A stretch of DNA of 43,919 bases from Candidatus Didemnitutus sp. (GTDB taxonomy: Bacteria > Verrucomicrobiota > Verrucomicrobiia > Opitutales > Opitutaceae), in NCBI GenBank assembly GCA_030682505.1, contig JAUXOH010000245.1:1-43919 (forward strand), written 5' to 3'. Of this stretch, positions 1,385-37,882 are shown one piece after another. Made by a program: the position numbers and the translations under genes. Within the stretch, counting starts at the first letter, position 1, and every line of letters begins with the position of its first letter. The notes beneath the pieces were generated by a model, which did not search any database, was not told the DNA's origin, and saw only the letters and a list, made by a program, of their open reading frames with translations.

Positions 1385-1389
1385 GCGGC

Positions 1390-3755: not shown

Positions 3756-4469
3756 CTATGGTTTTGGTTGTTGGGGGATGGGTGAAAAATTGGCGGCCCG
3801 AGCACCCGGAGGGTCGGGACGGCCCGGAGCGGAGTCCTGCCCGGGCGCCGGAGGCTCGGCGGAGGCAGCCGGGCGGCGGAGCGAGGGGCCGGGCCCGACC
3901 TTCCGGGTCGATGCCGCCCCTTCCGCCGCGACAACGGGGAGCGGGACGAGGTTTGGGGAGTCCCGCTCGGCGTTGTTAATCGGTGCGACGGCCAGGACGA
4001 CGCGCAGTCCAATGACAACCTGGTCCAGTTCGCGGGCTTGGGCCGCTCCCTTCGCGGTCACATCGAGCGATTCGAGGACGATCCCCGGCTGATCCATCCA
4101 CGATTTCAGGAAACGGAGATAGTCCGGCCAATCATGCAGACGCGGTGCGGAACGGGAAAGCAGCACGGATCGGCTGGCGCCATCCGGCTGCTGCCATTCG
4201 ACACGCCAGCCCGTTCCCACCTGTTCCGTGAACTTTCTCGCCGACCAGGCAACCGGCGGCAGCGCTCTGGACTGCTGACGCAGATTCGTGAGCGTGGCGT
4301 CGTCGTTTGCCGCGAGGGCGTCGCGCTCGCCGCGCAAGGCGACGAGTTCGGTGTCAACGCCGGTCGGCACGGGCCGCAGACGCGGTAGCGCCAAACCAAC
4401 CCCGGCGACAATCGCGCTCAGGCCGAGCAGAATCCATGCACCCCGCGTGATGAGAAAAGGGCGATTCAC
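3756..4469 (-). CDS. Membrane-anchored PilO/GspM-like pilus assembly protein with a low-complexity tail
   Basis: GTG 4469 overlaps the upstream TGA; N-terminal TM segment, coiled coil, then a ferredoxin-like alpha/beta segment; lies after the PilN-like gene. Family call is positional. Confidence 0.5.
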   Translation of the reverse strand: MNRPFLITRGAWILLGLSAIVAGVGLALPRLRPVPTGVDTELVALRGERDALAANDDATLTNLRQQSRALPPVAWSARKFTEQVGTGWRVEWQQPDGASRSVLLSRSAPRLHDWPDYLRFLKSWMDQPGIVLESLDVTAKGAAQARELDQVVIGLRVVLAVAPINNAERDSPNLVPLPVVAAEGAASTRKVGPGPSLRRPAASAEPPAPGQDSAPGRPDPPGARAANFSPIPQQPKP

Positions 4470-5674
4470 GGTGTGAAGACTCCGTTGACGGTGAAGGCTC
4501 CGGTGTCCCGGGGAGCCGCGGCCGGCAATACGGTCCAGCGTCTGCCACCGAGACGGTTGCGCCATTGCTCCCACGCAGCGGTGGCACCGGGCGCGACATG
4601 GCCACTCAGCGTAAAGCGGCCCTGGGCGACGCGGACTTGGTCGAGTGCGAGCTGCGGCGGCAGCGCGCCGCACACCGCATCCAGCAGTTCGCCGACCGGC
4701 GGACTCGAGCCGGGGCCAGCCAGCTTGGCCCGGAGGGAGACGATTTCGGCGGCGTTGACACGGTAGTGATCGATCTCGGCCCGCAGGGCAGATTTCTCGT
4801 GTGCGACGGCGTGCTGTCCGTCGTTCCATGTCATGAACTCATAGGCATAGGCGGCACCGCTCCATCCACCAGCGAGCAGCAGGCAGATGCTGGCGGCGAT
4901 GACCGCCCGTTGTGGGGTGACGGCGGACGCGGCGGGCAGCAATTGCGCCGGATGCGATCGCGGGAGAACGACCGACGATGACAGTGCCTCGTGCAGAGGG
5001 AGGCTCAGCGGGTCGTCCGGATCAGCGGCCTCATTCGGGAACACCAACAACGCCGGATCGTCCGGAAGCCGGGCCGTTTCCTCCTCAAGCCACGACTGGG
5101 CTTCATCGACGGCGGCTTCTCCGTGCCACCGGTGCACCATGCGACGCCCGTCCGCCGGATGATGGTAGGCGAGTGCGCAATTGTGGTTGTCCGCGAAGGC
5201 AAGAACGAGGGTCGCGCCCGTCTTGGACAACTCCTTGGGGAGTGACTGAAGGAAGGTCGCGAGCGGCCAAGCGGAAACCACGATCACTCTTCTTTGCGCC
5301 AGCCGAGCGACGAGTGAAAACAGCCCGGGCTCGGTCTCGTAGTGCAGCAGCGTGCTGTAGCCGTCGCCGACCGGCAGGATCGGTTCATGGCTCCAAGCGT
5401 GGTCAGGTGCAGCGAGAGCCGGGTGCTCGAACGCCAGCGCCCTTTGCAAGGCCGCACGAGGGCCGTGCGGACAGTCCACTGCCACGGTGACGAGCGTCTC
5501 CGGTTGGTAGATCAATCGCAACCGAACCGGATGGGGTTCGCCGGCCAGATGAGCCGTGAGAACCTCGGCCGCATGGGACAGGTTCTCGAAGGCGAGCGGT
5601 TCCACCCGCCCGGCGAGCCACCAGTGATGGCCCCACAGGAGCGCGGTGCGCTCAGATGTCGGCGAGATAGACAT
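4466..5674 (-). CDS. PilM/PilN (GspL-like) fused alignment-complex protein
   Basis: Cytoplasmic N-domain, one TM (AVIAASICLLLAGGW), coiled coil, and a PilN-like end (LLDAVCGALPPQLALDQVRVAQGRFTLSG). Confidence 0.6.
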   Translation of the reverse strand: MSISPTSERTALLWGHHWWLAGRVEPLAFENLSHAAEVLTAHLAGEPHPVRLRLIYQPETLVTVAVDCPHGPRAALQRALAFEHPALAAPDHAWSHEPILPVGDGYSTLLHYETEPGLFSLVARLAQRRVIVVSAWPLATFLQSLPKELSKTGATLVLAFADNHNCALAYHHPADGRRMVHRWHGEAAVDEAQSWLEEETARLPDDPALLVFPNEAADPDDPLSLPLHEALSSSVVLPRSHPAQLLPAASAVTPQRAVIAASICLLLAGGWSGAAYAYEFMTWNDGQHAVAHEKSALRAEIDHYRVNAAEIVSLRAKLAGPGSSPPVGELLDAVCGALPPQLALDQVRVAQGRFTLSGHVAPGATAAWEQWRNRLGGRRWTVLPAAAPRDTGAFTVNGVFTP

Positions 5675-6407
5675 ACACGTCGGTCACGCCATTGATGGGG
5701 GCGGCATATGCCACGATGCCGGTGTCGGAGGCGGCGCCTTCGACCGGGGCCAACTGGGGCGCATTCATGGAGAGCGCCAGTTCATAAGCGTCCCGCGCCG
5801 GGCAGTTCGGGATGACGAGGTAAGCCACCACGAGATTGGCGGAGAGATTGGTGGTCGTATCCCGTAACCGGAAATTGGCTCCCTGGGCGGCAGACGGTGC
5901 GAGGGCCGCATTGGAGGATCTTGCCTCGACGCGGGTGACGGCCGACCAGTTCCTCAACGGGGCTGCATCCGGGGTCATGACGAACGCCTGGACGGACTGG
6001 CTCCAGGTCATTTCATTGCCGGTGCCGGTGGAGGCGAAGAGCTGGCTACCGAGACGCAGGCTGACAGGACGTTCGAGTTTGCCGGCGGCAAGGAGCACGG
6101 CATCGAGCCGGGCGCCGTTGCCCTTGGCGGCATCGGTGGCGCCGGTGAGCGCGGCCCCGGAGCACGGGATGCCCGTGCCTTCGGTGCGGGGAATGCTGCC
6201 GTTGCCGCCCGGCATCACGATAAATTCCGTGATCGCGGTCTTGAGCGTCTCGGCAGTCTTTTGCGCCTGCTGGATGCGGGCGTTGCGCAAGGCATCAAAC
6301 CCCTTGGGCAGGAGCAAGCCGACCAGGATGCTGACGATAGCGAGGACGAGAACGAGTTCGAGCAGGGAGTAACCCTGCGTGGAATGGGTGCGTTTGGTAT
6401 GTTTCAT
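5652..6407 (-). CDS. Type IV prepilin, probable major pilin (251 aa)
   Basis: Class III signal MKHTKRTHSTQG/YSLLELVLVLAIVSILVGLLLP with E5; preceded by its own 39-nt intergenic region. Confidence 0.88.
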   Translation of the reverse strand: MKHTKRTHSTQGYSLLELVLVLAIVSILVGLLLPKGFDALRNARIQQAQKTAETLKTAITEFIVMPGGNGSIPRTEGTGIPCSGAALTGATDAAKGNGARLDAVLLAAGKLERPVSLRLGSQLFASTGTGNEMTWSQSVQAFVMTPDAAPLRNWSAVTRVEARSSNAALAPSAAQGANFRLRDTTTNLSANLVVAYLVIPNCPARDAYELALSMNAPQLAPVEGAASDTGIVAYAAPINGVTDVYVYLADI

Positions 6408-6446
6408 ATTTCGTTTGGTGGTTGTGGGCCGGACGGCCCGTGAAAA

Positions 6447-7646
6447 TCAGAGGACGCGGGCGACCTGCTCGATGGTCGTCTGGCCTGACGCCGCCCCGGC
6501 CAGTCCGTGCTGCCAGAGGGTCACGCATCCCTCGCGTTCGCGGAGGGCGGCGAGTTCGGCGAGCGGTGCATCTCGTTCGATAAGCGGAGTGAACTTGGCG
6601 GTCGGGATGACCTCATGGATGGCAATGCGCCCGCGAAAGCCCGTGCCCCGGCACGCCGGGCAACCGACCGCCCGGCAAAACGCTGCATCGGGCAAGCCGT
6701 GCTCCTCCCGCAAGCGGACGTTCGCCGGATGGGGCTCCTTGCACTCGGGACAGAGCCGGCGCACGAGCCGCTGGGCTGCGACCAGCCGGAGTGCCGCGGC
6801 GAGGAGAAAACTCTCGATGCCCAGGTCTCGCAGGCGCGGAATCGCGGCGAGGCCGTCATTGGTGTGCAGGGTCGAGAGCACCAGGTGCCCTGTGAGTGCC
6901 GCGCGGATAGCGAGCTGGGCGGTTTCGGCGTCGCGGGTTTCGCCCACCAGCATCACGTCGGGGTTTTGCCGTAGGAGAGCCCGCAGCGAAGCCGCAAAGG
7001 TGAGCCCGATCTTTTCCCTGATCTCGGTCTGGCGGATACCGGGGAACTCGTATTCCACCGGGTCTTCCAGCGTGTGAATCACCCGGCCCCGGTGATCGAG
7101 CTGGTGCAGTGCCGAATGGAGTGTCGTGGTCTTGCCGGAGCCGGTCGGGCCGGTGAGGTAGATGAGTCCCGCCGGGCCGGTGAGGGCCGCCTTCATGGCC
7201 TCGGCCTGCGGCAGCCCAAGGCCCAGCTCGGCAAACGACTGCCCGGGCATAGTCTGGTCCAGCAGTCGGATGACGAGGCTTTCGCCATACACCGTGGGCA
7301 CGGTGCTCAGGCGCAAATTGAACCGGCGGTTGTTCTCCTTCAGCATTGCCCGGCCGTCCTGGGGCAGCCGCTTTTCGGTGATGTCCAGCCCGCCGAAAAT
7401 CTTTCCGCGAGCGAGCAGCGCGTCGCGGTGGGCCAGGGCCACCCGCGCATGGTCGCGCATCTCGCCATCGATGCGGAAACGGACGAGCAGACCGTCCTCC
7501 TTGGGTTCGCAATGGATGTCGCTCGCTCCCTCCGCCGCGGCGGCCCGGAGAATCGCGTCGAAGGTGCGCGTGGCATCGGAACCCGGCTCGATGGCACGGG
7601 CCGGTGCCGGCGGGCGCGGACGGAAGGATTGGAGCAATTCGCGCAT
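6447..7646 (-). CDS. gspE: PilB/GspE/MshE-family assembly ATPase (399 aa, lacks the N1 domain)
   Basis: ASDIHCEP, RLPQDGR, GPTGSGKTTTL, TLEDPVEY, LRQNPDVMLVGETRD, TGHLVLSTLHTN, CPEC...CPAC. Start reset to 7646 (TGATG overlap). Confidence 0.93.
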   Translation of the reverse strand: MRELLQSFRPRPPAPARAIEPGSDATRTFDAILRAAAAEGASDIHCEPKEDGLLVRFRIDGEMRDHARVALAHRDALLARGKIFGGLDITEKRLPQDGRAMLKENNRRFNLRLSTVPTVYGESLVIRLLDQTMPGQSFAELGLGLPQAEAMKAALTGPAGLIYLTGPTGSGKTTTLHSALHQLDHRGRVIHTLEDPVEYEFPGIRQTEIREKIGLTFAASLRALLRQNPDVMLVGETRDAETAQLAIRAALTGHLVLSTLHTNDGLAAIPRLRDLGIESFLLAAALRLVAAQRLVRRLCPECKEPHPANVRLREEHGLPDAAFCRAVGCPACRGTGFRGRIAIHEVIPTAKFTPLIERDAPLAELAALREREGCVTLWQHGLAGAASGQTTIEQVARVL

Positions 7647-9049
7647 CAGCGGATGAGTTTCGGGGTGAGGAAAATCACGAGTTCGGTCCGGCTGGTGAGG
7701 GTCGCCTTGCTGCGGAACGCCCGCCCTACGACCGGCACCGCGCCCAGGATGGGCACGGCCCGCGTGGAATCGCCCGCGTCCTCGGAGATGAGCCCGCCGA
7801 TCATGGCGGTCTCGCCGTCCTTCAGACGGACGATGGTCGAAGCCTGCTTCACCTCCGTGAGCGGTGCCGTCTGCTTGCCGTCCGGGCTCGTCACAATCGC
7901 CTGCAACCGGGTGATGGCCGGCAGCACATCGAGCGTGATGACGCCGTTGGCGTCGATCTGCGGCGTCACCGCGAGGATGGTGCCGATGGTGATGGTCGAA
8001 ACCGAAAAGCTTTCCTGCGTTTGGTTCACCGGCACGGTGCTCCCGCCCGATTGGAAGGTCGTGGATTGCTGCAGGCGGAAGAACGGCCGGTCCTCGCCCA
8101 CCTTGATAAAAGCGGTCTGGTTGTTCAGCGTCCTCAGCCTCGGCTGCGCCACGGTCTTCACCTGACCCTGCTGCTGGAGGGCGTGGATGACCGCGGTGGC
8201 CCGGCCGAAGCCGAGGTTCGCCGCGAACGTGTTGGCCGCAAGCAGCGTGCCGCCCACGCCGGCGACCTGGAGGGGGGCACTGGCGTCGACCTGCACACTC
8301 CCCGCCGTGGTGGCGGCCAGGTCCCAATCGACGCCGAGCTTTCGCTCGTTGTGTAGCGTCACCTCAACTATGCGGGCTTCGATCTCGACCTGCTGGGTGA
8401 TACGCCGGTTCACGAGTTCGATGAAGGCGCGGATCGTCTCCTGCCTCCGCACGGGTGCCGTCACCTGTGCGACGCCCGAGAACTTGTTCACGACCAGGCT
8501 GTCGCCGTCCTTAAGCATGGTGCGCAATTCGGCCTCCAGCCCCGTCCAGAAAGTGTTTTGGTTCTCCTGCGAAATCGAAACCTGGGTGGCGTCTGAACCA
8601 GGCTGGCTCTGGCCGGTGCCGCCCAGCGTCTGCGGCAGCGATTGCGTCTGGCCGTTCTGATTGTAGCCGCCGCCGTTGTTGGCCCCGCCCAGCGTGATCG
8701 AGGCACTGCCCGAACCGCTGCGCGTCAGTTGCGGGTAGTCGATGGCGTAAAGGATGGTCCGCCGAAAACGCACCGCGATGCCGTCCGGGGTCTCCTCGAA
8801 ATAATACCCGCCAGGCTCGGTGAGCGCGGTCAGCGCGGAGCGCAAGGTCCCGTGGTTGACCTCGGCCGTCACCTCGCCGGTCACTTCGGGATCGAGCAGG
8901 ATGTTTGCCTGACAGGCGCGGGCTAGCGAACGGAGGGCGGCCGGCAACGGCGCTTTCTCCAGGCGAAGGTTGTCAACGGGGCGGTCGAAGAGCGCGGGCT
9001 CGACGGCGAGCGCCACGGTAGCAGAGAGAAGAAAGAGAATGAATTTCAT
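7646..9049 (-). CDS. Outer-membrane secretin (MshL/PilQ/GspD-like; 467 aa)
   Basis: Signal peptide, QVEIEARIVEV, LGVDW, PRLRTLNNQTAFIKVG, VRLKDGETAMIGGLI, VPILGAVPVVGRAF, ELVIFLTPK. The YAIDYPQLTRSG segment plus Ser/Gly insert resembles MshL. Start reset to 9049. Confidence 0.92.
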   Translation of the reverse strand: MKFILFLLSATVALAVEPALFDRPVDNLRLEKAPLPAALRSLARACQANILLDPEVTGEVTAEVNHGTLRSALTALTEPGGYYFEETPDGIAVRFRRTILYAIDYPQLTRSGSGSASITLGGANNGGGYNQNGQTQSLPQTLGGTGQSQPGSDATQVSISQENQNTFWTGLEAELRTMLKDGDSLVVNKFSGVAQVTAPVRRQETIRAFIELVNRRITQQVEIEARIVEVTLHNERKLGVDWDLAATTAGSVQVDASAPLQVAGVGGTLLAANTFAANLGFGRATAVIHALQQQGQVKTVAQPRLRTLNNQTAFIKVGEDRPFFRLQQSTTFQSGGSTVPVNQTQESFSVSTITIGTILAVTPQIDANGVITLDVLPAITRLQAIVTSPDGKQTAPLTEVKQASTIVRLKDGETAMIGGLISEDAGDSTRAVPILGAVPVVGRAFRSKATLTSRTELVIFLTPKLIR

Positions 9050-10911
9050 GGGTTGGGCTGGATGACGTAGGGGATGGATTCCGGCGTGCGACCGGTCTGG
9101 AGGAAGGTGCGGCCGGTCGCGCGGTAGCGGAGAACGGCGGGAGCCGCCGCGTTGAAGGTCCGGGTGACCGGAGCAGCCGGGAGGTAGGTGCCATCGCCGG
9201 GCTGCGTCGCCTGGACGCTGACGGCTCCCGGTCCGGTCAGGGTCAGCACACCGCCCGAGTAGGTCGCCGGCCCGGTGACGGTCAGCGTTACCGGCAACCC
9301 GGAGGTGGTCGTGACCATGAGCGGAAAACTCGCGCCCACGCTCTGGTCGCCGATGGCCGGGAAGGAAATAGTCTGGACCGTCTTGGACTCGAACACCGCT
9401 TGGACGGACAGGGGTCGGGTGATGGTCAGAGCAATGGATGGTGCGCTGCCGCTGGCATCGCCGGCCCAGCCGACAAACCGGTGGGTGGCGTCGGCCGCCG
9501 CCGAGATGGTTACAGTCGTGCCGTAGGGATAGTTGCCGCCGGGCGTTACGGCACCTCCGCCGCTGGCATTCGTAGTCAGCGAAAAGCTCTTCGGCGAGAA
9601 ATTCGCCTGCACGGTCTTCGCCCGGTCCATGAGGACGGCGAGCGGATTGGACGTTCCGCCGGCATCGCCGCTCCAACCGGCGAAGTCATGCGCGCCGCCC
9701 GGCGTGGCAGTGACCATGACGGTCGTGCCGGCCGTGTAGGTGCCGCCCGCTGATACCGCACCGCCCGCGCCTCCCGAGGTGACCAGGGCGAACTGGACCG
9801 GCGGCGGCGGAGCGACCGTGATGGCGACTGTGGCCGAGTGATACCACCCGCTGCCGTCAGACGCGGCCGATCTCACATAGTAAGTGCCGACGTCGGTGAA
9901 GGTAAAGCTGGCGGAGCGCGTCGAATCCGCGCCGCTGCCCACGGGACCGCCTTGATAGGGTTCGCCGGTCGCAAATCCGCCCTGGTAATTCCAGTCGCCG
10001 GCCGGGCGCTGGATGTCGAGATTGTGGTTCGAAATATTGCCGTCGAGATCGGTGGCCCGACTACTGATCATAAGGGTGGTTCCGGCAGTGATCGTCTGCG
10101 CACCGGGAGCAAGCAGTGTCACCGACGGGGGCTGATTCACCACGGCATTGATCGTGACGGTGTGGGTGATGACCGGGGACGTGGCGCCATCGGCATCCAC
10201 CGCCTGGGCGGTGAACGTGACTGTTTGCGGGCCACCGTCGCTCGTCCAGTTCCCGGAGTCGCCATCCGTGCCGTTGCCGCCGCCGGCAAAGGCGAATGGC
10301 TGTCCGTTTTTCCAAACGTTTACTTGGGCGAGGTTGCCGTCAGCGTCGTTGCCATGGGCGGCAACATAGTAGCCCTCTCCGTTCGCTGCGCTCGTCGGGG
10401 TGCTGCTCCAGGTGATGGTGGGCGGCGACCCTGACGGCCAGCCGTCGAGAAAGGCGGTTTCCGTCCAGACCGTGGTCGCTTGTAGTGGTGACGCCCAAGT
10501 CGTGTATTCAAAGAAGCGCAGGGTATAGGTGCCGGCGGGAACCCCCGTGATGTGCCACTGGGCTTCCAGCTGGCCGTCCGCCGGAGAGCCATCGGCTGCG
10601 TAGATGTTCACCCACGAGACCACGTCGGTCAGATAGCCCAGGCTGGCGAAAGTGCTGACCCCGGTGGTCTGGTAATGACTCGCCGTGACCCGTCCCAGAA
10701 GGTTGCCGCCGGCATCCCGCAGTTCCACTCGTCCTGGGGCGCTTGATTGCGGGTAGTCGTCGCCGAACCAATTGACCATGAAACTTACGGTGTAGCCTCC
10801 GGCCGGAATTGAGACCGTTTGGGTCGTGACGACGAAAATGGTGGTGGGTGGGGCGGCGTTAGCCGTCGCCAGACAAAGACAGGCTAACAGAGCGAGAATG
10901 AGTTTTTTCAT
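9046..10911 (-). CDS. Secreted beta-rich adhesin-like protein with Ig-like domains and two InlB B-repeat-like units (621 aa)
   Basis: Signal peptide MKKLILALLACLCLATANA; two repeats of the form GGxVxxGGxYxxGTTVxxxA...FxGWxGD; C-terminal QTISF...SGLPV Ig-like unit. Start reset to 10911. Confidence 0.8.
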   Translation of the reverse strand: MKKLILALLACLCLATANAAPPTTIFVVTTQTVSIPAGGYTVSFMVNWFGDDYPQSSAPGRVELRDAGGNLLGRVTASHYQTTGVSTFASLGYLTDVVSWVNIYAADGSPADGQLEAQWHITGVPAGTYTLRFFEYTTWASPLQATTVWTETAFLDGWPSGSPPTITWSSTPTSAANGEGYYVAAHGNDADGNLAQVNVWKNGQPFAFAGGGNGTDGDSGNWTSDGGPQTVTFTAQAVDADGATSPVITHTVTINAVVNQPPSVTLLAPGAQTITAGTTLMISSRATDLDGNISNHNLDIQRPAGDWNYQGGFATGEPYQGGPVGSGADSTRSASFTFTDVGTYYVRSAASDGSGWYHSATVAITVAPPPPVQFALVTSGGAGGAVSAGGTYTAGTTVMVTATPGGAHDFAGWSGDAGGTSNPLAVLMDRAKTVQANFSPKSFSLTTNASGGGAVTPGGNYPYGTTVTISAAADATHRFVGWAGDASGSAPSIALTITRPLSVQAVFESKTVQTISFPAIGDQSVGASFPLMVTTTSGLPVTLTVTGPATYSGGVLTLTGPGAVSVQATQPGDGTYLPAAPVTRTFNAAAPAVLRYRATGRTFLQTGRTPESIPYVIQPNP

Positions 10912-11861: not shown

Positions 11862-11864
11862 AAG

Positions 11865-13067: not shown

Positions 13068-13070
13068 GGC

Positions 13071-13751
13071 TCAGAGGGTTACTTTCACCCGGGTGGGCTC
13101 GGGAGATACCGGGAGCCGCAGCCGGTGGGCACCGAAGCGAACAATGACCGCACCGGCCTCGATGCGCTCGACCTCGAATCCCTCGAATGTGTCGCCGGCC
13201 TGCACGAGCCGTTCGTTCACCACCGCGCAGGGGGCCTTGCCCAGGATGATGCCGCCGACCAGGAGCGTCACCTCGCGGGTCTTTTCACCGGGTGCGGTCC
13301 GCACGGCGAAGGGATTAACCGGCTCGTTGGCGTTGCCCGCCTGCTCGATGGCAGCGAGATCAATGACGCCTTCGGCGTTGGGTGCGATGGCGGGCTCAGC
13401 CTTTACCGCCACGGGAACAGGCACCGGGACCGGAACAAGGGGCGATGATGGAACCGCGACGGCAACGGGTTCAGAAACGGAAGGCGTCGCGACCGGCGCG
13501 GATTGCAGGTTCGTCAGACGGGCCGTGAGCGCTTCGTTTTGGTTGATGAGCGCCTCGATCAGTTGAGCCTGCTGGCGGCTTCGCGGGTCCGGCATGGCGT
13601 TGGCGGGGCGCGCCGGCGGCGGGGAAGCGACAGGGGGAACCGCCTGCAGGCGGACCGGGACGGGCGGCGGCGGGGCGGGCAGCGTCGCCACGGGTGCCGG
13701 CGTGCGGCAGCCACAGAGCGCGAGGAGCACGAGCGTAAGAAGTGGTTTCAT
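13071..13751 (-). CDS. Lipoprotein with a C-terminal PilP/GspC/MshK-like beta domain
   Basis: Lipobox LALCGC, Pro-rich linker, NPF motif, AVVNERLVQAGDTFEGFEVERIE. Confidence 0.65.
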   Translation of the reverse strand: MKPLLTLVLLALCGCRTPAPVATLPAPPPPVPVRLQAVPPVASPPPARPANAMPDPRSRQQAQLIEALINQNEALTARLTNLQSAPVATPSVSEPVAVAVPSSPLVPVPVPVPVAVKAEPAIAPNAEGVIDLAAIEQAGNANEPVNPFAVRTAPGEKTREVTLLVGGIILGKAPCAVVNERLVQAGDTFEGFEVERIEAGAVIVRFGAHRLRLPVSPEPTRVKVTL

Positions 13752-14731
13752 GGGCGTGCGGGGGTGACGGCCAGCCGGCGGGCTTGGCCCAAGTCGAGGG
13801 TTTGGGTGACGTAGAGATAGAAGGGTTTGCCCGCGGGAACCCGCAGGTAGAGGCCGTCACGGGCGATGGTTTCGCGGATGGATTGCGCATACTCGCGGAG
13901 CACGGCGCTCGTGCCAGTGAGGGCCGCGTTGCGGGCGGTCGCAGTCGGCAGCGACGCCTCACCCAGCAGTCCGGTGGACAGACGGGTGTCTTGTAGGGCG
14001 GCGGTCGCTGCGCTGAGAAAGGTGGCGGCGAACAGTTTAAGTTCGCGGTCGTTGTCGGTCTTGACGACCTGACCGCGGAGCCCGGCCGAGCCGTCGTTCG
14101 GTCCCCATTCGCCGGTGGGCAACAGTTCGCGGTCGAGCGCCAGGCCGTCCACGGACAGCTCCGTGCCGTTGTCGGCATCGGGTGTGCGCCACACGATTTT
14201 CCAAGGGCCAGGCACCGCCAGCCGTTCGCGGGTGCGGTCGAGCGCGGCCCGGGCATGGACTTCCGCTCCCGCCGGGATGACGAGGCGGCCGTCATGCCAA
14301 ACATCCTCCGTGACGAGACCGATGACCGGCGTCTCCAGCCGGTTTGATTCGAGGGCCACGATCGTCTGGCAGGGAATCAACCGCCCGAACGGTGCCGACG
14401 GGGCGCGCAGTGCGGCCGGAGGCGGTTCTGGTGGACCGGAGAACAGGACCAGTGGAAGCGCGGTGGGTTTTTCAGTCGATGCCGGGGCTGTCACTGCGGT
14501 GGGCGCGGAAGCGGCGATTGCGCCGGTCGCGGCTGGCACCGGGGCTTTGAAGCGCGCTCCTTCCCGCGTTAGTGTCTTGGGCAGGACGACTGTGGGCGTG
14601 GATTTCGCCGCCGGCAGCGGTGCGGGGGTGCGCTTGGCGTTCTGCCAGCGCACGGCGAGGATGCCGAGCATGAGCACCGCGACGACGAGCACGACCTGGC
14701 CGGTGGGGGAAGTGAAGAAGTCGCGGTTCAT
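13748..14731 (-). CDS. virB10: VirB10/TrbI-like T4SS core protein
   Basis: N-terminal TM, Pro/Ala linker, GRLIPCQTIVALES, PVIGLVTEDVW, VIPAGAEV, DGSAGLRG, YLRVPAGKPFYLYV. Confidence 0.85.
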   Translation of the reverse strand: MNRDFFTSPTGQVVLVVAVLMLGILAVRWQNAKRTPAPLPAAKSTPTVVLPKTLTREGARFKAPVPAATGAIAASAPTAVTAPASTEKPTALPLVLFSGPPEPPPAALRAPSAPFGRLIPCQTIVALESNRLETPVIGLVTEDVWHDGRLVIPAGAEVHARAALDRTRERLAVPGPWKIVWRTPDADNGTELSVDGLALDRELLPTGEWGPNDGSAGLRGQVVKTDNDRELKLFAATFLSAATAALQDTRLSTGLLGEASLPTATARNAALTGTSAVLREYAQSIRETIARDGLYLRVPAGKPFYLYVTQTLDLGQARRLAVTPARP

Positions 14732-15537
14732 GGGTGCGGCACGATGACGTTGAAATTCTCCCGCACGGACAGATTGGCGCGCCCGCGTCCCGGGCTTCCG
14801 CTGATCACGAGATGAATCCGCGTGGTGATCTTGGGTGGGATCGCCCCGGAGGCGTCGGCTAGGGCGGCGGGGTAAACCTCGTGGCCGACCCGCACGGCGA
14901 GCGCCTGCGGATCGTAGGGCACCGGCACGTCGAGGGTGTTTTCCAACCGGACGCGGAGCACGACCACGTCCTCGGCATCAAACCGCACGACTTCCTCGAC
15001 CGTCGCGCTGAAGGCCCGGTAGTGGGTGACGTTGCCGGGCTGCGCCCGGTCAATCCGGGCGATCATCTCGGGATATAGGCTTTGCAGCCGGTCCAGTTGC
15101 TTCGCCCGCTCCAGCAGCCCTCGCAGCGCCTCGGGGGTCGGTGGCTCGTAGGCGCCCCCCACCAGCGGTTCGTTCAGGAACACCACGGCCTGGTCGGCGC
15201 TCTCTCCGGTGGCAAATGCCAGAGCATAGACCCGGCCTTGGTGGATCACATTCAAGGCGCCGGTCGCATCGTCCTTCAGCGCGCGGAGAGAAAAATATTC
15301 CGTGCCCGGTTCGTGCGACATCAGGATGCCGGGGGCATCGTCCACCTTGGTCGAGACATTCGCGCCCACCAGCGCCTTGATCGCCCCGGGGAAAACGCAG
15401 GTGGTCGGCTCGCCCTTCGACAGCCGGATCGAATAGACGCTGCGCTCGTCGAGCGGATACGTCCGAATCTGCGAGGCTTCGACCCCCGCGACCAGCAGCG
15501 CCTGCACCATGATCATTGCGACGATTCGTAGGTCCAT
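14728..15537 (-). CDS. VirB9/TrbG-like T4SS outer-membrane core protein
   Basis: Signal peptide, VYSIRLSKGEPTTCVFP, and position between VirB8 and VirB10. Start is 15537 or 15516. Confidence 0.65.
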   Translation of the reverse strand: MDLRIVAMIMVQALLVAGVEASQIRTYPLDERSVYSIRLSKGEPTTCVFPGAIKALVGANVSTKVDDAPGILMSHEPGTEYFSLRALKDDATGALNVIHQGRVYALAFATGESADQAVVFLNEPLVGGAYEPPTPEALRGLLERAKQLDRLQSLYPEMIARIDRAQPGNVTHYRAFSATVEEVVRFDAEDVVVLRVRLENTLDVPVPYDPQALAVRVGHEVYPAALADASGAIPPKITTRIHLVISGSPGRGRANLSVRENFNVIVPHP

Positions 15538-16169
15538 ACAGCCAAGGGAAAGCGGCCGTTGCCGGCCAGGTTGGGGTTGCGCGCGAAGGTCAATCGCACG
15601 GTGAAGGCCGGGGCCTCCGTGAATGTCTGGTCGTTGACGACGCCGGTGCGGATCAACTGCCCCTCGGCCTGCACAAGCACGGACTGCTCGCGGGTTTCGA
15701 GGACGGTCAGCTTCAATATCTCCGGCTTTTGATGGAGCGATTTGGCCGCAAACTCCTCGGCGTCCGCCGCCGTCCGTTCGCGCGCCTTTCTGGCCGCCTC
15801 CGGGAGGAACAGCTTGTCGAGCAGTTCGGGATAGTCGAAGCCCGCTGGGTTGCGCTGGAACAGGGCGAGACACGCCAGGAGCGCGTGCTGTTCATGCAGC
15901 TTCGCCGCCTCCTCGAAGCCGAGGAGTGGGCTCGAGTAGAACGTCCCAGCCGCATCAAGCACGACGACACGCTCTTTCGTCCGGTAGGCGCGGATAATAA
16001 GGAAAGGCTGCACCGCGCAGAACCCGACGGCGATCAGGGCGACGAGGCACCACAGCCGCGCCGCCAGCGCATGGTCGGCAAACAGTTCGAGCGGCCGCCA
16101 AGCCCGGCGCGGGCGCTGTTCCGGGGTGGGCCGCACGTGCGGCACGGGGGATTCGCGGAGAGTCGTCAT
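15513..16169 (-). CDS. VirB8/TrbF-like T4SS protein
   Basis: Single N-terminal TM, VVVLDAAG, NTF2-like C-terminus ending RNPNLAGNGRFPLAVWTY. Confidence 0.7.
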   Translation of the reverse strand: MTTLRESPVPHVRPTPEQRPRRAWRPLELFADHALAARLWCLVALIAVGFCAVQPFLIIRAYRTKERVVVLDAAGTFYSSPLLGFEEAAKLHEQHALLACLALFQRNPAGFDYPELLDKLFLPEAARKARERTAADAEEFAAKSLHQKPEILKLTVLETREQSVLVQAEGQLIRTGVVNDQTFTEAPAFTVRLTFARNPNLAGNGRFPLAVWTYESSQ

Positions 16170-16172
16170 GGG

Positions 16173-17231
16173 TCAAATGCTCCTTTGCGCCGCAGGCAAG
16201 GTTAGGGAGGAGATGGCGGCTGCGGCGGCCTGGTCTCCGGCGGGGTCGGTGTTCGGTGCGGGCGCGGACGGTGCCTGGGCCGGCGGCGGTGTAGCCGGTG
16301 GCGGTGGCGGCGGCAGGCCCGGTCCGCCGGCGGTCCCCGAGGCGCCCCCGGTCTTCGCCGCGGAGGCCGCCAGAGCCGGAGCGGCGAGACCGGCCGTCTT
16401 CATCGTTTTCACCATGTAGGTGAGCTGCTGGAGCGCGTAGAGCTGGTGCAGTGCCGTGCTTCCGCCTCCGGACATCGGCGAACCCGAGCAGATGAGGCCC
16501 TGCATGAGAAAGGGCGTCGCGATGCTCCCGATGATGAGCCACAGCGCGCCGACCAGCCCGCCGAGCAGGCTCCCGAAGGAGGCGGCGTCGATTTCTCCCG
16601 GCGTCAGGTCGTAGGCGACGGCGAGGTTATTCGCGTAACCGGTGATCAGGTGGTAGGCGACGAGTTCCGTCACCGCGAACCCGACCGGCCAGGCCAGGAT
16701 GGCCACGGTCTGTTGCACATAGCGGGTCGCGAGCTGCGCCTGCGAGGGAATCATATAAAACGCGAGGGCGACCGGCAGGAACAGGTAGCACAGGAGCTTT
16801 AAGACGAATTGTAGGATGAGGAGCGGCACTTGCAGCAGGCTCGCGATCAAGACGACCAACTTCACCGACCCGTCGAGAAACGCTCGGTAGAGTGATTCGC
16901 CGATCCGCCGCAGGCTGAATTCGCTGTTGCTGGTGACCGTCTCGCGCAGCTTGGAGGCCGCGCGCATTGGGTGTTGCGTGTAGCCGTCCTGCACGGTGTC
17001 CGCCACGCTGAGAAACACCCGCTCGGTGAAACCGAACCAGTGGGGCAAGGTCGCCACAAGTCCGACGACAATCGCGGCCCGCACGAGCGGCCGGGTGAGC
17101 CCTTCGGTGTCCGCCCGCGCTTGCTGGATCTGGATCACCAGTCCGGCGACGCACACGAAATACACCACCACCCGCAACGCGTCGGTGAGGGAGAGGACGC
17201 CCTCGCGCAGTCCTGGAGCGAAGTTTTCCAT
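16173..17231 (-). CDS. virB6: VirB6/TrbL-like polytopic membrane protein (352 aa)
   Basis: Multiple TM helices, FLPVALAFYMIP, ILAWP, and an Ala/Gly/Pro-rich tail. Start reset to 17231. Confidence 0.75.
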   Translation of the reverse strand: MENFAPGLREGVLSLTDALRVVVYFVCVAGLVIQIQQARADTEGLTRPLVRAAIVVGLVATLPHWFGFTERVFLSVADTVQDGYTQHPMRAASKLRETVTSNSEFSLRRIGESLYRAFLDGSVKLVVLIASLLQVPLLILQFVLKLLCYLFLPVALAFYMIPSQAQLATRYVQQTVAILAWPVGFAVTELVAYHLITGYANNLAVAYDLTPGEIDAASFGSLLGGLVGALWLIIGSIATPFLMQGLICSGSPMSGGGSTALHQLYALQQLTYMVKTMKTAGLAAPALAASAAKTGGASGTAGGPGLPPPPPPATPPPAQAPSAPAPNTDPAGDQAAAAAISSLTLPAAQRSI

Positions 17232-17506
17232 CAGTTGCGTCCCTCCTGCGGTCGTTGCCGGATTTCCTCTTGGCGGAGCTTTTTCAGCAGCCGCCGCATC
17301 GGTTCCGATGGGTAGTCGGTCCGGGTATCGACCTTGATTTCTCCCTGCCAGCGGTCGACGGGCGCGACGTTCCGGCGAGGCGGTGCAGGCAAGTCCGACG
17401 TGTCGGGCAGCAAAGGTGCCGTGCGGCAGGCGTGTCGGAGAACCAGCAGACCGCACACGGTCAGACCGGCAAATGCAATGAGAAGATAGGCCGTCATGCG
17501 CTTCAT
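17231..17506 (-). CDS. Small membrane-anchored protein, candidate entry-exclusion factor
   Basis: 91 aa with an N-terminal hydrophobic segment, coupled on both sides between virB5 and virB6, where trbK/eex sit in IncP/W/N systems. Function is positional inference. Confidence 0.5.
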   Translation of the reverse strand: MKRMTAYLLIAFAGLTVCGLLVLRHACRTAPLLPDTSDLPAPPRRNVAPVDRWQGEIKVDTRTDYPSEPMRRLLKKLRQEEIRQRPQEGRN

Positions 17507-18312
17507 CGCCGGGTGTAGTCGGTCGGGGTCACCTTCATGCTCTCCTGCCAGGCGCCCACGACGCCCAAGGTCTGGCGCTCCTCCGCGAGCTGTTTCTCCA
17601 AATAATCCTGCCGCTCCTTGGCCGCCTGATTCTCGTTGAGGATCTGCTGGGCGCGGAGTTTCCCCTCCTCGTCGCGCCGTTGCGCATCCACCCGCGCGAG
17701 CTGGCCGTTCAGGGCGGCGAGTTTCCCGTTCAACTTGTCCACCTCGGCCTGCGTGCTGGCGGCGCGCAATTGTTCGAGCGTGGCGGCGATGTCCGCCTGC
17801 AGGCCGGCGGCGCGCTCGTCGGTCTGCGTTTGAACCGCGGCCAGGTTGTCGGCCTGCCGCTCCACGGCGGCGTATCTCTTATAGAGTGATTCCTGGCGGG
17901 TGAACTCCCGCCCCAGCGCGGTGCGGTCATCGAGTTTTTGGTAAATCCCCTCCGAAGTCCGCCGCAACGAATCGACCGCGTTGGCCAGACGGCGCGCAGC
18001 GGCCAGAGTCTCGCCATATTGCCGGGCGAGGTCGCCCGCACCTAGATCGCGCAGGGCAACGCCCGCACCGGCGGCACTCGGATCGCCGATGACATCGCGA
18101 ATCCGCTGCTGCACGGCGAGCTGCTCCTCCAACTGGCGCAACTGGCGGTTGAGCTGTTCCAACTGCTCCGCCCACCGGCGCATGGTTTCCAGGTGATTGG
18201 CGGCCTGGCCCGCCTGCACGGCGGAATTGACTGCGGTGTTGACGGGATCGTTGACGATCCATTGGGCGCACATAGGCGCGGCGAGCAGGAGAAATGACAG
18301 TAGGTATTTCAT
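17503..18312 (-). CDS. virB5: VirB5/TrbJ-like protein (269 aa)
   Basis: Signal peptide, then AQWIVNDPVN and a long Gln-rich coiled coil. Start reset to 18312. Confidence 0.75.
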   Translation of the reverse strand: MKYLLSFLLLAAPMCAQWIVNDPVNTAVNSAVQAGQAANHLETMRRWAEQLEQLNRQLRQLEEQLAVQQRIRDVIGDPSAAGAGVALRDLGAGDLARQYGETLAAARRLANAVDSLRRTSEGIYQKLDDRTALGREFTRQESLYKRYAAVERQADNLAAVQTQTDERAAGLQADIAATLEQLRAASTQAEVDKLNGKLAALNGQLARVDAQRRDEEGKLRAQQILNENQAAKERQDYLEKQLAEERQTLGVVGAWQESMKVTPTDYTRR

Positions 18313-18491
18313 GGCGTCTTGGGGTTGGGCACGGACGTCGTCCGCTGCTGGTTCTGGATGATCCAATACTGCTCCTTCACGGCCTGCCGGTAGCCGCGCT
18401 CGTAGGCCAGGGCCTCGGCATCCGGTTCGCGTCGTGGGGACGCGCAGCCGGTCAGGAGCAGTAGGCAGATGATGATGAGGCTAGCCCGCAT
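18309..18491 (-). CDS. Small lipoprotein, VirB7-like (60 aa)
   Basis: MRASLIIICLLLLTGC lipobox; overlaps both neighbours. Confidence 0.65.
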   Translation of the reverse strand: MRASLIIICLLLLTGCASPRREPDAEALAYERGYRQAVKEQYWIIQNQQRTTSVPNPKTP

Positions 18492-21390
18492 GGCGTTCCT
18501 CCTGGATGTGGCGGATGGTGCCGCACTGCGGCGGTTGCGCCGTAGGCGCGAAATAGCAGAGCGACGAATACCGGCCGTGGTCCGGCAACTGTTCGGGCAG
18601 CGGATACCGCTGGATGGCATCGAGAGCCGTCTCAGGCAGCGGCAGGTCCGCGGCCAGATCGGCGAGGTCCGCGCGGTCGGCCTGCCGCATGAAGAAGAAT
18701 TGCTTGGCGTTGCCGATGACCGCGGCGCGGATGCGAGAAGTCTTGAACCGCGAATACTGTTGGATGATCGAGGCGCACCAGCAGTTGTGCTTGCGAAGCT
18801 GCGCGTAGCCCTCGGCGACGATCTGCTCTCCGCCCGGCGTATCGAGGAACCGCGACAGCTCCTCAAACAGGATGCGTTTTCTTTTGGCGCGCGGCAGAGC
18901 CAAGATGTGCTGGCGGCCCAGCCCGCTGATGAGCAGTCCGATGGCGGCCTTGAGTTCGACCGCCTGCTCGGGGATGGAGCCGAGCTCGAAGTGCGCGATC
19001 CGACGGTTGAGCGAAATGTTCGTCACCCCGTCGAATAGGCGCCCATACTGACCTTCGACGCTCCACGCTCGGAGCAAGGTTGCCAGCCGGTCGATCTCGT
19101 CCTTGCCGTGTTCCGGGAACCGGCCGTAGGCGAGCAACTCGACCAGTGCACTGTGCGTCGGATAGTCTTCCGGCGCGTAGAAGGCGCACGCGGTATGCGC
19201 GACGAGTCGTTCGGTCTCCGGTGCTTGGGCGAAGCGGGTGATGCTCTCTTCGGACAATCCGGCGACAAAGTTCCGGGCCTCGTTGTCCTCGCGGGCCAGC
19301 CGGTCCCGCAGGTCGCAGTAGATGTCGAGCGGTGTGGCTCCCGCCGGGAGCTTCGCCCGCCATTGATGGGCGGCACAGGCCAGCCGCCGGACCTTTTCGG
19401 CTTCTTCCGGATTCTTCCGCGACCAGTCCACATAGCTGTCACGGTAGAGCTGGTGGAGGTATTGGGTGAGTTGGGCTTGCCGCAAGGCCAGTTGTTCGGC
19501 GTTTGCCGGTTGTCCCACCATGCGGGCGAGGAGTGCCACAGCCGTGGCCAGATGCAGTTGCGACAGCGGCAGCCGCTGGGTGTCGAGGTAGTTGAGCGTA
19601 AGCGCCGAGTCGGGATGAACGATGATCGGGGTTTCGCCCAAACTCTCGGTGAAGCGCTTGTAGGAAAAGCCTTCTTCGGCGATCAGCGTGTAGTCGAAAT
19701 CGCCCGCTGTCTGCCAAAGCAGATCCTCCACATACGCCGACTTGCCTGCTCCCGTGATTCCGAACAGCACCGCGTGCTGCGGCGAGCCGCCCGCCTGCGT
19801 CGAAACCCCGACGAGATTGCCATGGCTGCCGTCGTAGAGCGCCTCGGCCTCGGCCAGCGCCCCGGTAAACGTGGCGGAGAACGGCAGCATGTCCGCGAGA
19901 AAAGTATCCTCGGCGTAAAGCTCGCGGTGCCGATACGACGAATGCGTCCAACCCGGCCACGACGACCAAAAGAGTTTCTGCGCCGTCGTCGGCAGCGAAC
20001 ACTCGAGGTATTGGGCGCCATCCATGGCGTGGATCGCCGCCTGCACGGCCGCGAGCTTCTCGCGTAGCGCGTCTCTCGTCGGTGCCCACACGCGCACGAG
20101 GTAGGTGACATGGAACGGCCGGGCGAAGCCGCCTGAGAGCTGTTCGACTTTGCGCTCCTTCTTTCTCAGCGCCACGAGCAGGGAGGTGCGTGGCTTCTCG
20201 GCGTATTCTCCGCGCAGGCGCTCGGCGGCCCGCTCCTCGCGGCCGATCTCCGCCCGGGCGGCGGCGGGGGTCACATTGACCGTCAGGCAATAGTCCAGGA
20301 AGGGCAGGCCGGTCAGGTGGGTGACGATTCCGGGCCTCGTCCGCTGCGGCCAGCGGGACAGCGCCAGCACGGCATGATAGTGTCCGTCCAGATGGAACCC
20401 GCCGTCCTCTTGTCCGATGCCTTCGCTGTGCCAGCAGTTCTCCTGCAGGGTGAGGCTCGGGTCGAACGAGTCCGCCGCGGCTTCCTGCCCGCGCATCCCG
20501 AGGCTGGGATTGAGGAAGCGTCGCAGGATCGCGCAGTGCCCGGCCTCGTCCAGCGGAGTGATCGCGGTCTCCGCCCCGAACACGCTCCGCAACGTGGCGG
20601 CGAATTCCTCGAATTGGGCTGCCAGTTCGCCGAGCAACACCTCGTAGTGGCCTTCAAGGCCCCCGCGTGTCCGCAGGTTGCCGGCGTAGGCGGTGATTTC
20701 GATGGAGAAAAAGACGGTGAGTCGTTCCCGCCGCAACCGTCGGTCGGCCATGCGCTGCCAGTAGCGGGTGAACCGCTCATTGCGGACGCGCCGGATCTCC
20801 GAGTTGGACACCACCTGGGTGCGTTCATGGTAGCGGAGCAATTCGGCCTGATAGTCGGAGTCACAGGACCATTGAAACTGCACCCGCCGGCCAGGGCCGA
20901 CCAGGGCAAGCATAGCCCGCACTTGGTCTTGGAAGGCGTTCAGCCGGGCAATGCTCGCCCCGCGCAACTCGGGTGGCTCAAACCGGTAGCCCTTGACGAC
21001 GACTCCACCTTGTTCAGGCGCGCCGTAGAGGACGAAACCGTTGACGAATCTGCCTTCGGGCGGCCGGGCGTGGGTCTTCCCCAGGCAGGGGGCATCGGCA
21101 CCGGGGGACCCGTTTCCCCGGCCCATGACCATGTCCACCCGGTCCCGGTCGTAGCCCCGGGGTTTCCCATGCCTGAATCCCAATACCCATACGGAAACGA
21201 CACCCAAAGGCACTACTCCGAGCAGTCCGGCGGTGCCATAACCGATGCCAAGGAGCCCGAATCCGGCAAAAATCCCGATTGCGGACACCAAGCCGGCCGC
21301 GAGTGGCAGGTAGAGGTTGCCATCGAGCCCGAAAGCGCGTCCGACCGAGTCGTCGGCAGCATTGGTGTCGGTGAAGCGCAGTTCAGTCAT
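18481..21390 (-). CDS. virB4: VirB4 ATPase with an N-terminal VirB3-like two-TM domain (969 aa)
   Basis: Walker A LFGITGAGKS, Walker B region ILFEELSRFL, QLRKHNCWCASIIQQ; first ~100 aa contain two TM helices and GKPRGY. Start reset to 21390. Confidence 0.9.
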   Translation of the reverse strand: MTELRFTDTNAADDSVGRAFGLDGNLYLPLAAGLVSAIGIFAGFGLLGIGYGTAGLLGVVPLGVVSVWVLGFRHGKPRGYDRDRVDMVMGRGNGSPGADAPCLGKTHARPPEGRFVNGFVLYGAPEQGGVVVKGYRFEPPELRGASIARLNAFQDQVRAMLALVGPGRRVQFQWSCDSDYQAELLRYHERTQVVSNSEIRRVRNERFTRYWQRMADRRLRRERLTVFFSIEITAYAGNLRTRGGLEGHYEVLLGELAAQFEEFAATLRSVFGAETAITPLDEAGHCAILRRFLNPSLGMRGQEAAADSFDPSLTLQENCWHSEGIGQEDGGFHLDGHYHAVLALSRWPQRTRPGIVTHLTGLPFLDYCLTVNVTPAAARAEIGREERAAERLRGEYAEKPRTSLLVALRKKERKVEQLSGGFARPFHVTYLVRVWAPTRDALREKLAAVQAAIHAMDGAQYLECSLPTTAQKLFWSSWPGWTHSSYRHRELYAEDTFLADMLPFSATFTGALAEAEALYDGSHGNLVGVSTQAGGSPQHAVLFGITGAGKSAYVEDLLWQTAGDFDYTLIAEEGFSYKRFTESLGETPIIVHPDSALTLNYLDTQRLPLSQLHLATAVALLARMVGQPANAEQLALRQAQLTQYLHQLYRDSYVDWSRKNPEEAEKVRRLACAAHQWRAKLPAGATPLDIYCDLRDRLAREDNEARNFVAGLSEESITRFAQAPETERLVAHTACAFYAPEDYPTHSALVELLAYGRFPEHGKDEIDRLATLLRAWSVEGQYGRLFDGVTNISLNRRIAHFELGSIPEQAVELKAAIGLLISGLGRQHILALPRAKRKRILFEELSRFLDTPGGEQIVAEGYAQLRKHNCWCASIIQQYSRFKTSRIRAAVIGNAKQFFFMRQADRADLADLAADLPLPETALDAIQRYPLPEQLPDHGRYSSLCYFAPTAQPPQCGTIRHIQEERHAG

Positions 21391-21392
21391 GG

Positions 21393-21710
21393 CTAGAACC
21401 GAGGGGTCACGACTGCGTCCTGCATCCCGAAGATCGCAAAGAGGGCGCCCATGATTGCTGCTGCTGCGGCGATGATGATCCCGGCCAGAATCCCCCCTTT
21501 GCCTTCGGAATCCCCTTTGCTGATGGCGTTGGCCCCGCCCCAAATTTTGATGATACCCCAAAAAAAACCGATCATGAAGATCAGCACGAGGGCGCTGCCG
21601 AAGCCCTCCCGGAGCTGTTGGAGTTGGGCAATCGGTGGAACAAACGGCGTGCCTTTGGTCAGGAACGCGATCTTCGCGCGGGCGGGAGCAGTGAGAGAGA
21701 AAATCACCAT
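21393..21710 (-). CDS. VirB2/TrbC-like conjugative pilin
   Basis: 105 aa, leader followed by two hydrophobic helices, first gene of the virB run. Confidence 0.7.
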   Translation of the reverse strand: MVIFSLTAPARAKIAFLTKGTPFVPPIAQLQQLREGFGSALVLIFMIGFFWGIIKIWGGANAISKGDSEGKGGILAGIIIAAAAAIMGALFAIFGMQDAVVTPRF

Positions 21711-37871: not shown

Positions 37872-37882
37872 CCCGCCGTGCC

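Follow-up and report, generated by a model that had tools for sequence, protein, structure and literature searches.

Are the accessory pili of conjugative elements merely co-expressed with a type IV secretion system (T4SS), or are they physically joined to it? A fusion gene makes this question testable in the stretch of DNA analysed here (the window), a 43,919-nucleotide contig (JAUXOH010000245.1; C72 in our set) taken whole, at 43.9 kb, from a 3.1 Mb genome of 63% GC assigned to Candidatus Didemnitutus sp., with relatives named as Opitutaceae or Verrucomicrobiota. Eighteen minus-strand genes run head to tail from 21710 to 3756, and two further genes extend the operon to 2954. From sequence and comparative analysis we consider it probable that the window holds an integrative and conjugative element (ICE) with a complete type IV filament cassette in its transfer operon, the filament being an adhesive mating pilus that holds recipients while DNA passes through VirB8-9-10. 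It would mean that conjugation here recruited a type IV filament independently, out of an MSH-like (MSHA-type) lineage and not from the type IVb pili used by IncI plasmids and PAPI-1. The genes of the operon, with their open reading frames (ORFs), are as follows.

21393..21710 (-), VirB2-like conjugative pilin, by position and a hydrophobic hairpin; no hidden Markov model match
18481..21390 (-), VirB4/TraC-family ATPase, likely with an N-terminal VirB3-like fusion; TraC-F 88 bits, VirB4_CagE 66 bits, both far below cut-off
18309..18491 (-), 60-residue lipoprotein, VirB7-like by size and position only
17503..18312 (-), secreted coiled-coil protein, VirB5/TrbJ-like by position
17231..17506 (-), 91-residue membrane-anchored ORF, variable between elements; entry-exclusion candidate from its position
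16173..17231 (-), VirB6/TrbL-like; PF04610 E 0.003, below cut-off
15513..16169 (-), VirB8-like by position only
14728..15537 (-), VirB9/TraK-like; nearest named ESM Atlas clusters CagX/VirB9 and TraK
13748..14731 (-), VirB10/TrbI; PF03743 58.5 bits, cut-off 35
13071..13751 (-), chimeric lipoprotein: lipobox and coiled coil (~53-85), Pro-rich linker, C-terminal MshK/GspC-HR/PilP-type domain (~157-226)
11865..13067 (-), PilC/GspF/MshG platform protein; PF00482 130 bits
10908..11861 (-), large prepilin, likely minor or tip pilin; PF07963, 22-residue leader, G/FSLLE
9046..10911 (-), secreted beta-rich protein with InlB-B repeats, likely tip adhesin; PF18998
7646..9049 (-), MshL-like secretin (Secretin_N_2 and Secretin); best family MshL, TIGR02519 200.9 bits, cut-off 250.2
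6447..7646 (-), PilB/GspE-family extension ATPase, 399 residues; PF00437 372 bits
5652..6407 (-), prepilin, likely major pilin; 12-residue leader, G/YSLLE, 239-residue mature form, ratio of nonsynonymous to synonymous substitution rates (dN/dS) 0.05-0.07
4466..5674 (-), PilM-PilN fusion or GspL-like alignment protein; Foldseek PilM and EpsL E 2-5e-7
3756..4469 (-), PilO/GspM-like; ESM Atlas nearest GspMb/PilO 0.94 (a lead); GTG start overlapping the upstream stop
3458..3751 (-), 97-residue ORF of the T4SS operon tail, directly after the lipoprotein gene in some filament-less sisters
2954..3445 (-), 163-residue ORF of the operon tail, which in filament-less sisters marks the empty site, ~0.7-1.0 kb past virB10

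The ORFs named in the initial annotation are all present where it had placed them, and the near-continuous operon that it described is borne out: 16 of the 17 junctions between 21710 and 3756 measure -25 to +3 nucleotides, the exception being a 39-nucleotide gap before the major pilin, the only cassette gene to follow a real gap (27-50 nucleotides in relatives). Picking start codons partly for their nearness to the preceding stop brings in some circularity, but 8/8 related elements show the same pattern of junctions. GC content and GC at third codon positions (GC3) are alike in the T4SS and filament modules, purifying selection acts on 15/15 genes tested (dN/dS 0.05-0.42), and a promoter and terminator scan of the window gave chance-level matches only. 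The PilC/GspF and PilB/GspE proteins, the secretin and the two class III prepilins all score above Pfam cut-offs.

Along the VirB2-VirB10 order, VirB10 scores above its cut-off, VirB6 and VirB9 match weakly, and VirB2, VirB5, VirB7 and VirB8 are placed by position only. Because VirB4 falls far below every VirB4/TraC cut-off, the term VirB-type describes a gene order here and not a class. PDB profile searches with the VirB8-like and VirB9-like genes gave no match, and a profile comparison of the VirB8-like protein with the protein at the virB8 position of the IncI2 plasmid R721 was not significant. Relatives align to the VirB4 ORF from residue ~105, its first ~105 residues being a separate upstream ORF there, and from these alignments it is most likely a VirB3-VirB4 fusion. 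The 91-residue ORF at 17231-17506, previously overlooked, occupies the apparent gap between the virB5-like gene and virB6.

Where, then, does the T4SS end and the filament begin? The initial annotation placed the boundary at the ATGA shared by the end of virB10 (13748) and the start of the lipoprotein gene (13751), and counted that gene as the first of nine filament genes. Nine genes are present and the overlap is real, but the same -4 overlap is found in 10/32 filament-less sisters and is rejected as a mark of T4SS-filament coupling. Since those sisters share a lipoprotein after virB10 without the extra domain, the ATGA is inherited and the real seam is within the gene, half of which belongs to the T4SS. 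Judged by profile and model comparison, the true T4SS-filament seam is inside 13071-13751, where an ancestral post-virB10 T4SS lipoprotein is fused to an MshK/GspC/PilP-type domain.

In filament-less sisters the lipoprotein right after virB10 has a RYVDP...HEAH...W beta domain followed by a coiled coil, and it aligns with the filament-linked lipoproteins at an hhalign probability of 95.6 (E 1.2e-8). The extra C-terminal domain is found in 61/61 filament-linked lipoproteins vs 0/32 filament-less ones, and at metagenome loci in 31/31 with a filament and 0/24 without. Among the 61 filament-linked copies the beta domain is found in 12 and the coiled coil in 41, both are found in none, and 8 are weak or cut. 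The copy in the window has kept the coiled coil (14.6 bits vs a best of 3.7 in shuffles) and lost the RYVDP domain.

The model of the C-terminal domain best matches GspC-HR (Z 7.5, root-mean-square deviation 1.4, 57 residues), then GspB and PilP. Its top nine structural matches form one fold family, of which Legionella chain 7muc_AF, from the Dot/Icm T4SS, is a member; a filament origin is therefore not proved by the fold alone. The best outside sequence matches are ORFs just upstream of mshL in Legionella (hhalign probability 95.7) and Aeromonas, which we take to be the MshK position; the junction domain does not match R721 PilP (probability 0.7). In the window's genome the HR-domain profile matched nothing else and an unfused ancestral lipoprotein gene was not detected. 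Two plasmids hold other states of this gene: on TAV5 (CP007054) the HR domain is a separate gene before pilC and virB8-10 lie elsewhere, and on that of Termitidicoccus mucosus TSB47 (NZ_CP109797) it is fused to a long ancestral N-terminal part that matches the ancestral profile over residues 96-201 (E 8e-5). An identification of the ancestral lipoprotein as TraV/VirB7 was tried and rejected, the leads being weak: the C-terminal part of TraV from F, which PMC8617172 describes as wrapping TraK in the F core complex, can be aligned in register with the RYVDP domain (P 0.004, probability 8%), and a TraV profile search of 5 genomes found nothing above cut-off.

VirB4 matches were found in 37/401 genomes sampled across the host phylum, the source genome counted, and several genomes hold two divergent copies. 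Up to 20 kb was examined around 48 of the 49 other matches (some stretches end at contig ends; G127, at a contig end, was left out). At 8/8 loci with VirB4 of at least 58% identity the nine-gene cassette lies in the same order, flanked by virB10 and the two tail ORFs. The remaining 40 loci comprise 38 with no filament gene in the examined stretch and 2 with a different filament. The empty site is seen in five close sisters, where a tail ORF comes 0.6-0.9 kb after virB10. Scanning GTDB genomes by PilC alignment gave 80 loci, of which 61 have 55-92% identity and the other 19 no more than 32%. The 61 close loci are nearly all from Opitutaceae or other Verrucomicrobiota, and virB10 lies directly upstream in 56/56 of those with at least 1.2 kb of upstream sequence; virB genes were found in 0/19 of the distant loci. 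Metagenomes held 80 virB10 loci, of which 25 were too short, 31 had both filament and fused domain, and 24 had neither. In a set of 72,556 plasmid records, the sole matches to most of VirB4 are two plasmids of Opitutaceae, at 29-30% identity. Three short contigs (2.7-9.4 kb) are filed under other phyla and may be misbinned. The same element also occurs on 79-104 kb contigs filed under Limisphaerales and Pedosphaera (L064, L113), hinting, if the bins are right, that it has spread beyond Opitutaceae.

In a VirB4 tree (FastTree; 47 of 66 rows, near-duplicates left out, with TSB47 represented by its longest intact piece only), the filament-bearing ICEs are monophyletic (support 1.0) and nested among filament-less lineages. 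Together with a filament that is not type IVb, this grouping favours the distinct ICE lineage with a linked filament that had been proposed. Judged by the trees, a PilT-bearing cassette with a separate HR-domain gene, of the TAV5 type, would have come to sit behind virB10 and fused with the resident lipoprotein, and the ICE clade would then have lost PilT and the N-terminal part of PilB.

What class of filament is it? The phylogenies and synteny comparison suggested in the initial annotation place it outside the type IVb PilQ and GspD clades and link it to virB genes in relatives. In trees with few references and weak deep support, the ICE ATPases form a clade (support 1.0) apart from the six host paralogues and from the type IVb PilQ, MshE, GspE and HofB groups; the TAV5 ATPase is weakly linked to this clade. 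In these trees the secretin clusters with its counterparts from the two plasmids and from a chromosomal operon (L123/L132). Its position is next to MshL and PilN but distant from GspD, as sister to the MshL pair and not within it. At 399 residues the ATPase is without the long N-terminal part of its 460-760-residue relatives, and it scores best with GspE (438 bits, vs 400 for PilB). MshL is the best-scoring family of the secretin, though under its cut-off, in keeping with its first naming as MshL-like. In a search of 1.84 billion representatives the nearest non-ICE secretins reach at most 47% identity, one being named MshL by its source.

As for type IVb pili, the PilQ clade (support 1.0) excludes the ICE ATPase, the secretin scores 100 bits with TIGR02520 PilN vs 201 with MshL, and 0/81 stretches of filament-bearing elements carry a peptidase, in agreement with the earlier view that the filament is not of this type. 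A type II secretion system (T2SS) is not indicated either, the secretin lying outside the GspD clade and the two prepilins standing without the GspH-K set of four; against type IVa are the absence of PilT, the fused PilM-N and a PilQ score of 136 bits vs 201 for MshL. The locus shares with MSH systems an MshK-like component and the lack of a prepilin peptidase, a gene which, in the account of Denise et al. (PMC6668835), no MSH locus has. The TFFscan MSH model described there makes mshA, mshE, mshG and mshL mandatory, and likewise mshM; MshM was found in 0/81 stretches and the ATPase lies outside the MshE pair (grouped at 1.0). From these comparisons the filament looks MSH-like and fails strict MSH membership.

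Family scans of the window and the 81 stretches found no VirB11, VirB1-type transglycosylase, PilT or prepilin peptidase, confirming what had been noted from the window. Nor was there a transglycosylase, MshM or second ATPase in the 81, and no second ATPase (PilT) was found in the 55 stretches that hold PilB; R64 and R721 (peptidase) and Aeromonas and Legionella (MshM) served as positive controls. The host genome has one A24 peptidase, on another contig, consistent with the proposed reliance on a host enzyme, and six other PilB/GspE-type ATPases. Recent capture from the host chromosome was considered and rejected: neither the ATPase nor the secretin falls with paralogues of the host, GC and GC3 are alike in the two modules, and the HR-domain profile matches nothing else there. 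A compact chromosomal operon in Pseudomonadota metagenome-assembled genomes (L123, L132), ordered pilB-pilC-large pilin-pilMN-pilO-176-residue ORF-secretin, has the nearest non-mobile secretin among the references used and may resemble the donor type.

The InlB-repeat protein is the most length-variable product of the cassette (262-821 residues among relatives) and has the lowest concordance with the other genes (rho 0.06-0.44), as expected of an adhesin that recognises recipients. At fourteen loci (L062, L072, L074, L083, L084, L086, L087, L091, L094, L097-L099, L105 and L106) the genes for minor pilin and adhesin are separated by an additional 1-4 kb of DNA, perhaps a variable slot for extra adhesins.

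How new is this arrangement? The IncI2 plasmids R721 and TP114, which pair an MPF_T T4SS with a type IVb pilus, resemble the window: according to the annotation of R721, genes for a secretin, PilO, PilP, an ATPase, a platform protein, a pilin and an adhesin come after virB2-3-4-8-9-10 without a change of strand. The R721 order is virB2-11, virD4, then pilN-V on one strand, so the statement that accessory pili usually occupy a separate pil operon was too strong. Unlike the window, R721 carries VirB11 and VirB1, an A24 peptidase of its own, a shufflon and a MOBP relaxase, and its pilP is a gene by itself; the window differs in turn in that its ATPase lies outside the PilQ clade and its junction domain does not match PilP and is fused to a T4SS lipoprotein. 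As virB-plus-pilus co-linearity is already known from IncI2, the window is a variant and an independent recruitment, and the chimeric junction protein is its new feature. The type IVb pilus of R721/TP114 is described as aiding mating-pair formation (PMC9045228), and IncI type IV pili as raising transfer in liquid, with IncI and PAPI-1 pili aiding or being required for transfer (PMC12857230, PMC9045228). The R64 (IncI1) thin pilus and the PAPI-1 pilus are likewise type IV filaments carried by a conjugative element, but they are type IVb, in a separate pil block with its own peptidase; the R64 T4SS is MPF_I and in PAPI-1 only VirB4 and VirD4 are recognised, according to a review, whereas the window has a putative full VirB2-10 set and MOBF. 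MSH pili share with the window an MshL-like secretin with Secretin_N_2, an MshK-like domain, a PilMN fusion and a single locus with no peptidase; the window differs in lacking MshM, in an ATPase that does not group with MshE, in having two prepilins only, in gene order and in lying on an ICE.

Also close are the TAV5 and TSB47 plasmids, which have a homologous cassette, a related VirB4 and MOBF, TSB47 also sharing virB8-9-10 and the order fused lipoprotein, pilC, minor pilin. Both differ from the window in keeping a PilT-like ATPase, and TAV5 also in its 597-residue PilB, unfused HR-domain gene and virB8-10 placed elsewhere. Both plasmids are circular (L161/L166 and L162/L163) with filament genes mostly annotated as hypothetical, and the TSB47 record shows numerous frameshifts as well as block duplications, which may reflect an assembly problem. 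In the literature searched we found no published description of these genes, no paper on Verrucomicrobiota conjugation systems and no description of a Verrucomicrobiota T4SS-filament system, although the supplements of PMC6668835 and PMC4027160 may list such systems.

In the mechanism that we favour, one transcript would encode both machines and the host A24 peptidase (PilD) would mature the two prepilins. The 399-residue ATPase, PilC, PilMN and PilO would extrude the filament through the MshL-like secretin, with no dedicated retraction motor, and the C-terminal domain of the chimera would bind the secretin, as GspC-HR and PilP do. With the variable InlB-repeat protein as its tip adhesin, the filament would catch and hold recipients, into which the MOBF relaxase and coupling protein would deliver single-stranded DNA through the T4SS (VirB8-9-10 channel). 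Several points weigh against an adhesive mating pilus on an ICE gained in this way. The co-occurrence counts overlap, hold duplicates and come from kin, so they amount to one evolutionary event and its retention and not to independent tests. The VirB10 tree has the same shape with a support of only 0.10 for the filament clade. The fused arrangement is also found on TSB47, whose T4SS is more distant (VirB4 ~26-32% identical); the distribution could therefore still reflect an ancient gain followed by repeated losses, or an exchange of cassettes. Without PilT, the drawing-in of captured cells has no evident motor; attachment-site (att) direct repeats were looked for in the window and none were found; and the RNA-library contigs over the operon are short, shallow pieces that may be DNA.

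Could the two machines instead be one physical hybrid, with the chimera as a tether between secretin and outer-membrane core of the T4SS that places the filament at the transfer site, the filament perhaps being essential as in PAPI-1? A T4SS-derived N-terminal part is kept in at least 53/61 fusion copies, TSB47 retains the long ancestral form, no unfused ancestral gene was detected in the window's genome, and the RYVDP domain resembles, weakly, the TraK-wrapping end of TraV. We nevertheless regard such a hybrid as unlikely: no ICE-clade copy has both ancestral parts, and that of the window looks like a T4SS half decaying to anchor and spacer, the cassette of TAV5 is unfused and far from virB8-10, and the TraV profile found nothing in the 5 genomes. 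Also unlikely, in our view, is a broader form of this idea, in which the chimera would link an MSH-like secretin to the T4SS core in a two-filament machine of a Verrucomicrobiota-specific T4SS, along a series from unfused (TAV5) through fused (TSB47) to trimmed in two ways (ICE). Rather improbable, in our view, is that the cassette is a T2SS-like secretion or adhesion module serving the lifestyle of the host (biofilm, export of the InlB-repeat protein) and placed in the operon only for expression and spread. The absence of PilT, the best score with GspE, the GspC and GspB matches of the junction domain, and the secreted metalloprotease-like gene that adjoins the virB-free L123/L132 operon all speak for it, but there are two prepilins only, the secretin is outside the GspD clade, the cassette was never found unlinked from virB10 (56/56) and always lies within the transfer operon, and the host already has its six other ATPases. 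Natural controls are at hand in sister elements that lack the cassette, in a plasmid on which it is unfused, and in Oleiharenicola sp. Vm1 (L102), a carrier available in culture.

It had also been proposed that the PilB-type ATPase substitutes for the missing VirB11 and powers the T4SS. PilB and VirB11 both belong to PF00437 and the window has no VirB11, but 14/14 filament-less sister loci (10 genomes) also have no PF00437 gene above cut-off within 45 kb. The five filament-less-sister genomes tested all hold MOBF relaxases, and in G153, a single-contig genome, a MOBF relaxase lies 3 kb from virB4 and no PF00437 gene lies within 800 kb. VirB11 is moreover given as rare outside MPF_T, at 19% (PMC4027160). 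Because the filament-less sisters are equally VirB11-less, compensation by PilB is unsupported, is contradicted by this distribution, and strikes us as highly improbable. The extra ATPase found across the family is ClpB-like and not PilB:

22240..23262 (+), single-ring ClpB-D2-type AAA+ ATPase; PF07724, PF10431; adjoins the T4SS in 39/48 loci

Some lineages have it upstream of virB2 in divergent orientation, others downstream of virB10 and on the same strand. It is a better candidate than PilB for a putative third ATPase or unfoldase of the VirB11-less T4SS.

Replacement of the VirB8-10 channel by the secretin, an idea raised by loci with virB2-6 beside filament genes and no virB8-10 (TAV5, L043/L044), was rejected for TAV5 and G024. 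VirB8-10 are kept in every filament-bearing element with enough sequence and also, lying apart, on TAV5 and G024, where virB8 and virB10 were found elsewhere on the same replicon or contig; G258 has further virB8-10 copies on other contigs. L043 (G024:C31:225082-245081) and L044 (G258:C50:61283-81282) are themselves a second, different T4SS-filament pairing in the same T4SS family, ordered virB2-3-4, lipoprotein, virB5, virB6, then several prepilins and other filament genes (PilT-like ATPase, PilM- and PilO-like proteins, 757-residue PilB, PilC, secretin). They are set among housekeeping genes (epimerase, glutamate synthase), with virB8-10 of G024 37 kb away. Their ATPases do not group with that of the window, and they are possibly an independent recruitment or a domesticated element.

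The remaining features of the window are those of a mobile element and its surroundings.

194-439 (+) and 569-2445 (-), ORFs near the start of the window: YhcG/DUF1016 PD-(D/E)XK nuclease-like ORF, 271-residue ORF and small XRE-type-regulator-like ORF
25244..26746 (-), coupling protein (VirD4/TraD-like); PF10412, PF02534
27213..27920 (-), TraL/ParA-like ATPase; family scan
28605..31262 (+), MOBF relaxase-helicase; NF041492 195 bits, TrwC 250 bits
31622..37474 (+), large methyltransferase/SNF2 helicase; family scan
37742..40000 (+), large serine recombinase, right end of the element; PF00239, PF07508, PF13408
40055-43846 (-), heavy-metal P-type ATPase and TolC-like outer-membrane protein, just beyond the recombinase

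The ICE gene set is complete, with serine recombinase, MOBF relaxase, coupling protein and VirB4-family ATPase on one element, and the same holds in relatives; the earlier MOBF assignment is secure, NF041492 exceeding its cut-off of 100. The recombinase lies beside tRNA-Gln, -Arg or -Asn in three relatives, and read cover drops just after ~39990, past the recombinase, in 2/4 DNA runs of other studies. Varied tRNA neighbours, the two divergent copies in several genomes and this drop are in line with mobility. Two DNA runs show the 40055-43846 genes joined to the element and two others do not contain them; they are therefore probably flanking DNA and not fixed cargo. Homologues of the 271-residue ORF near the start of the window occur on the TSB47 plasmid and, in relatives, at the operon tail. 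Between the divergent cluster of coupling protein and TraL genes and the relaxase gene, the intergenic stretch 28353-28604 holds short GTAGTGG repeats and is, by position, a candidate origin of transfer.

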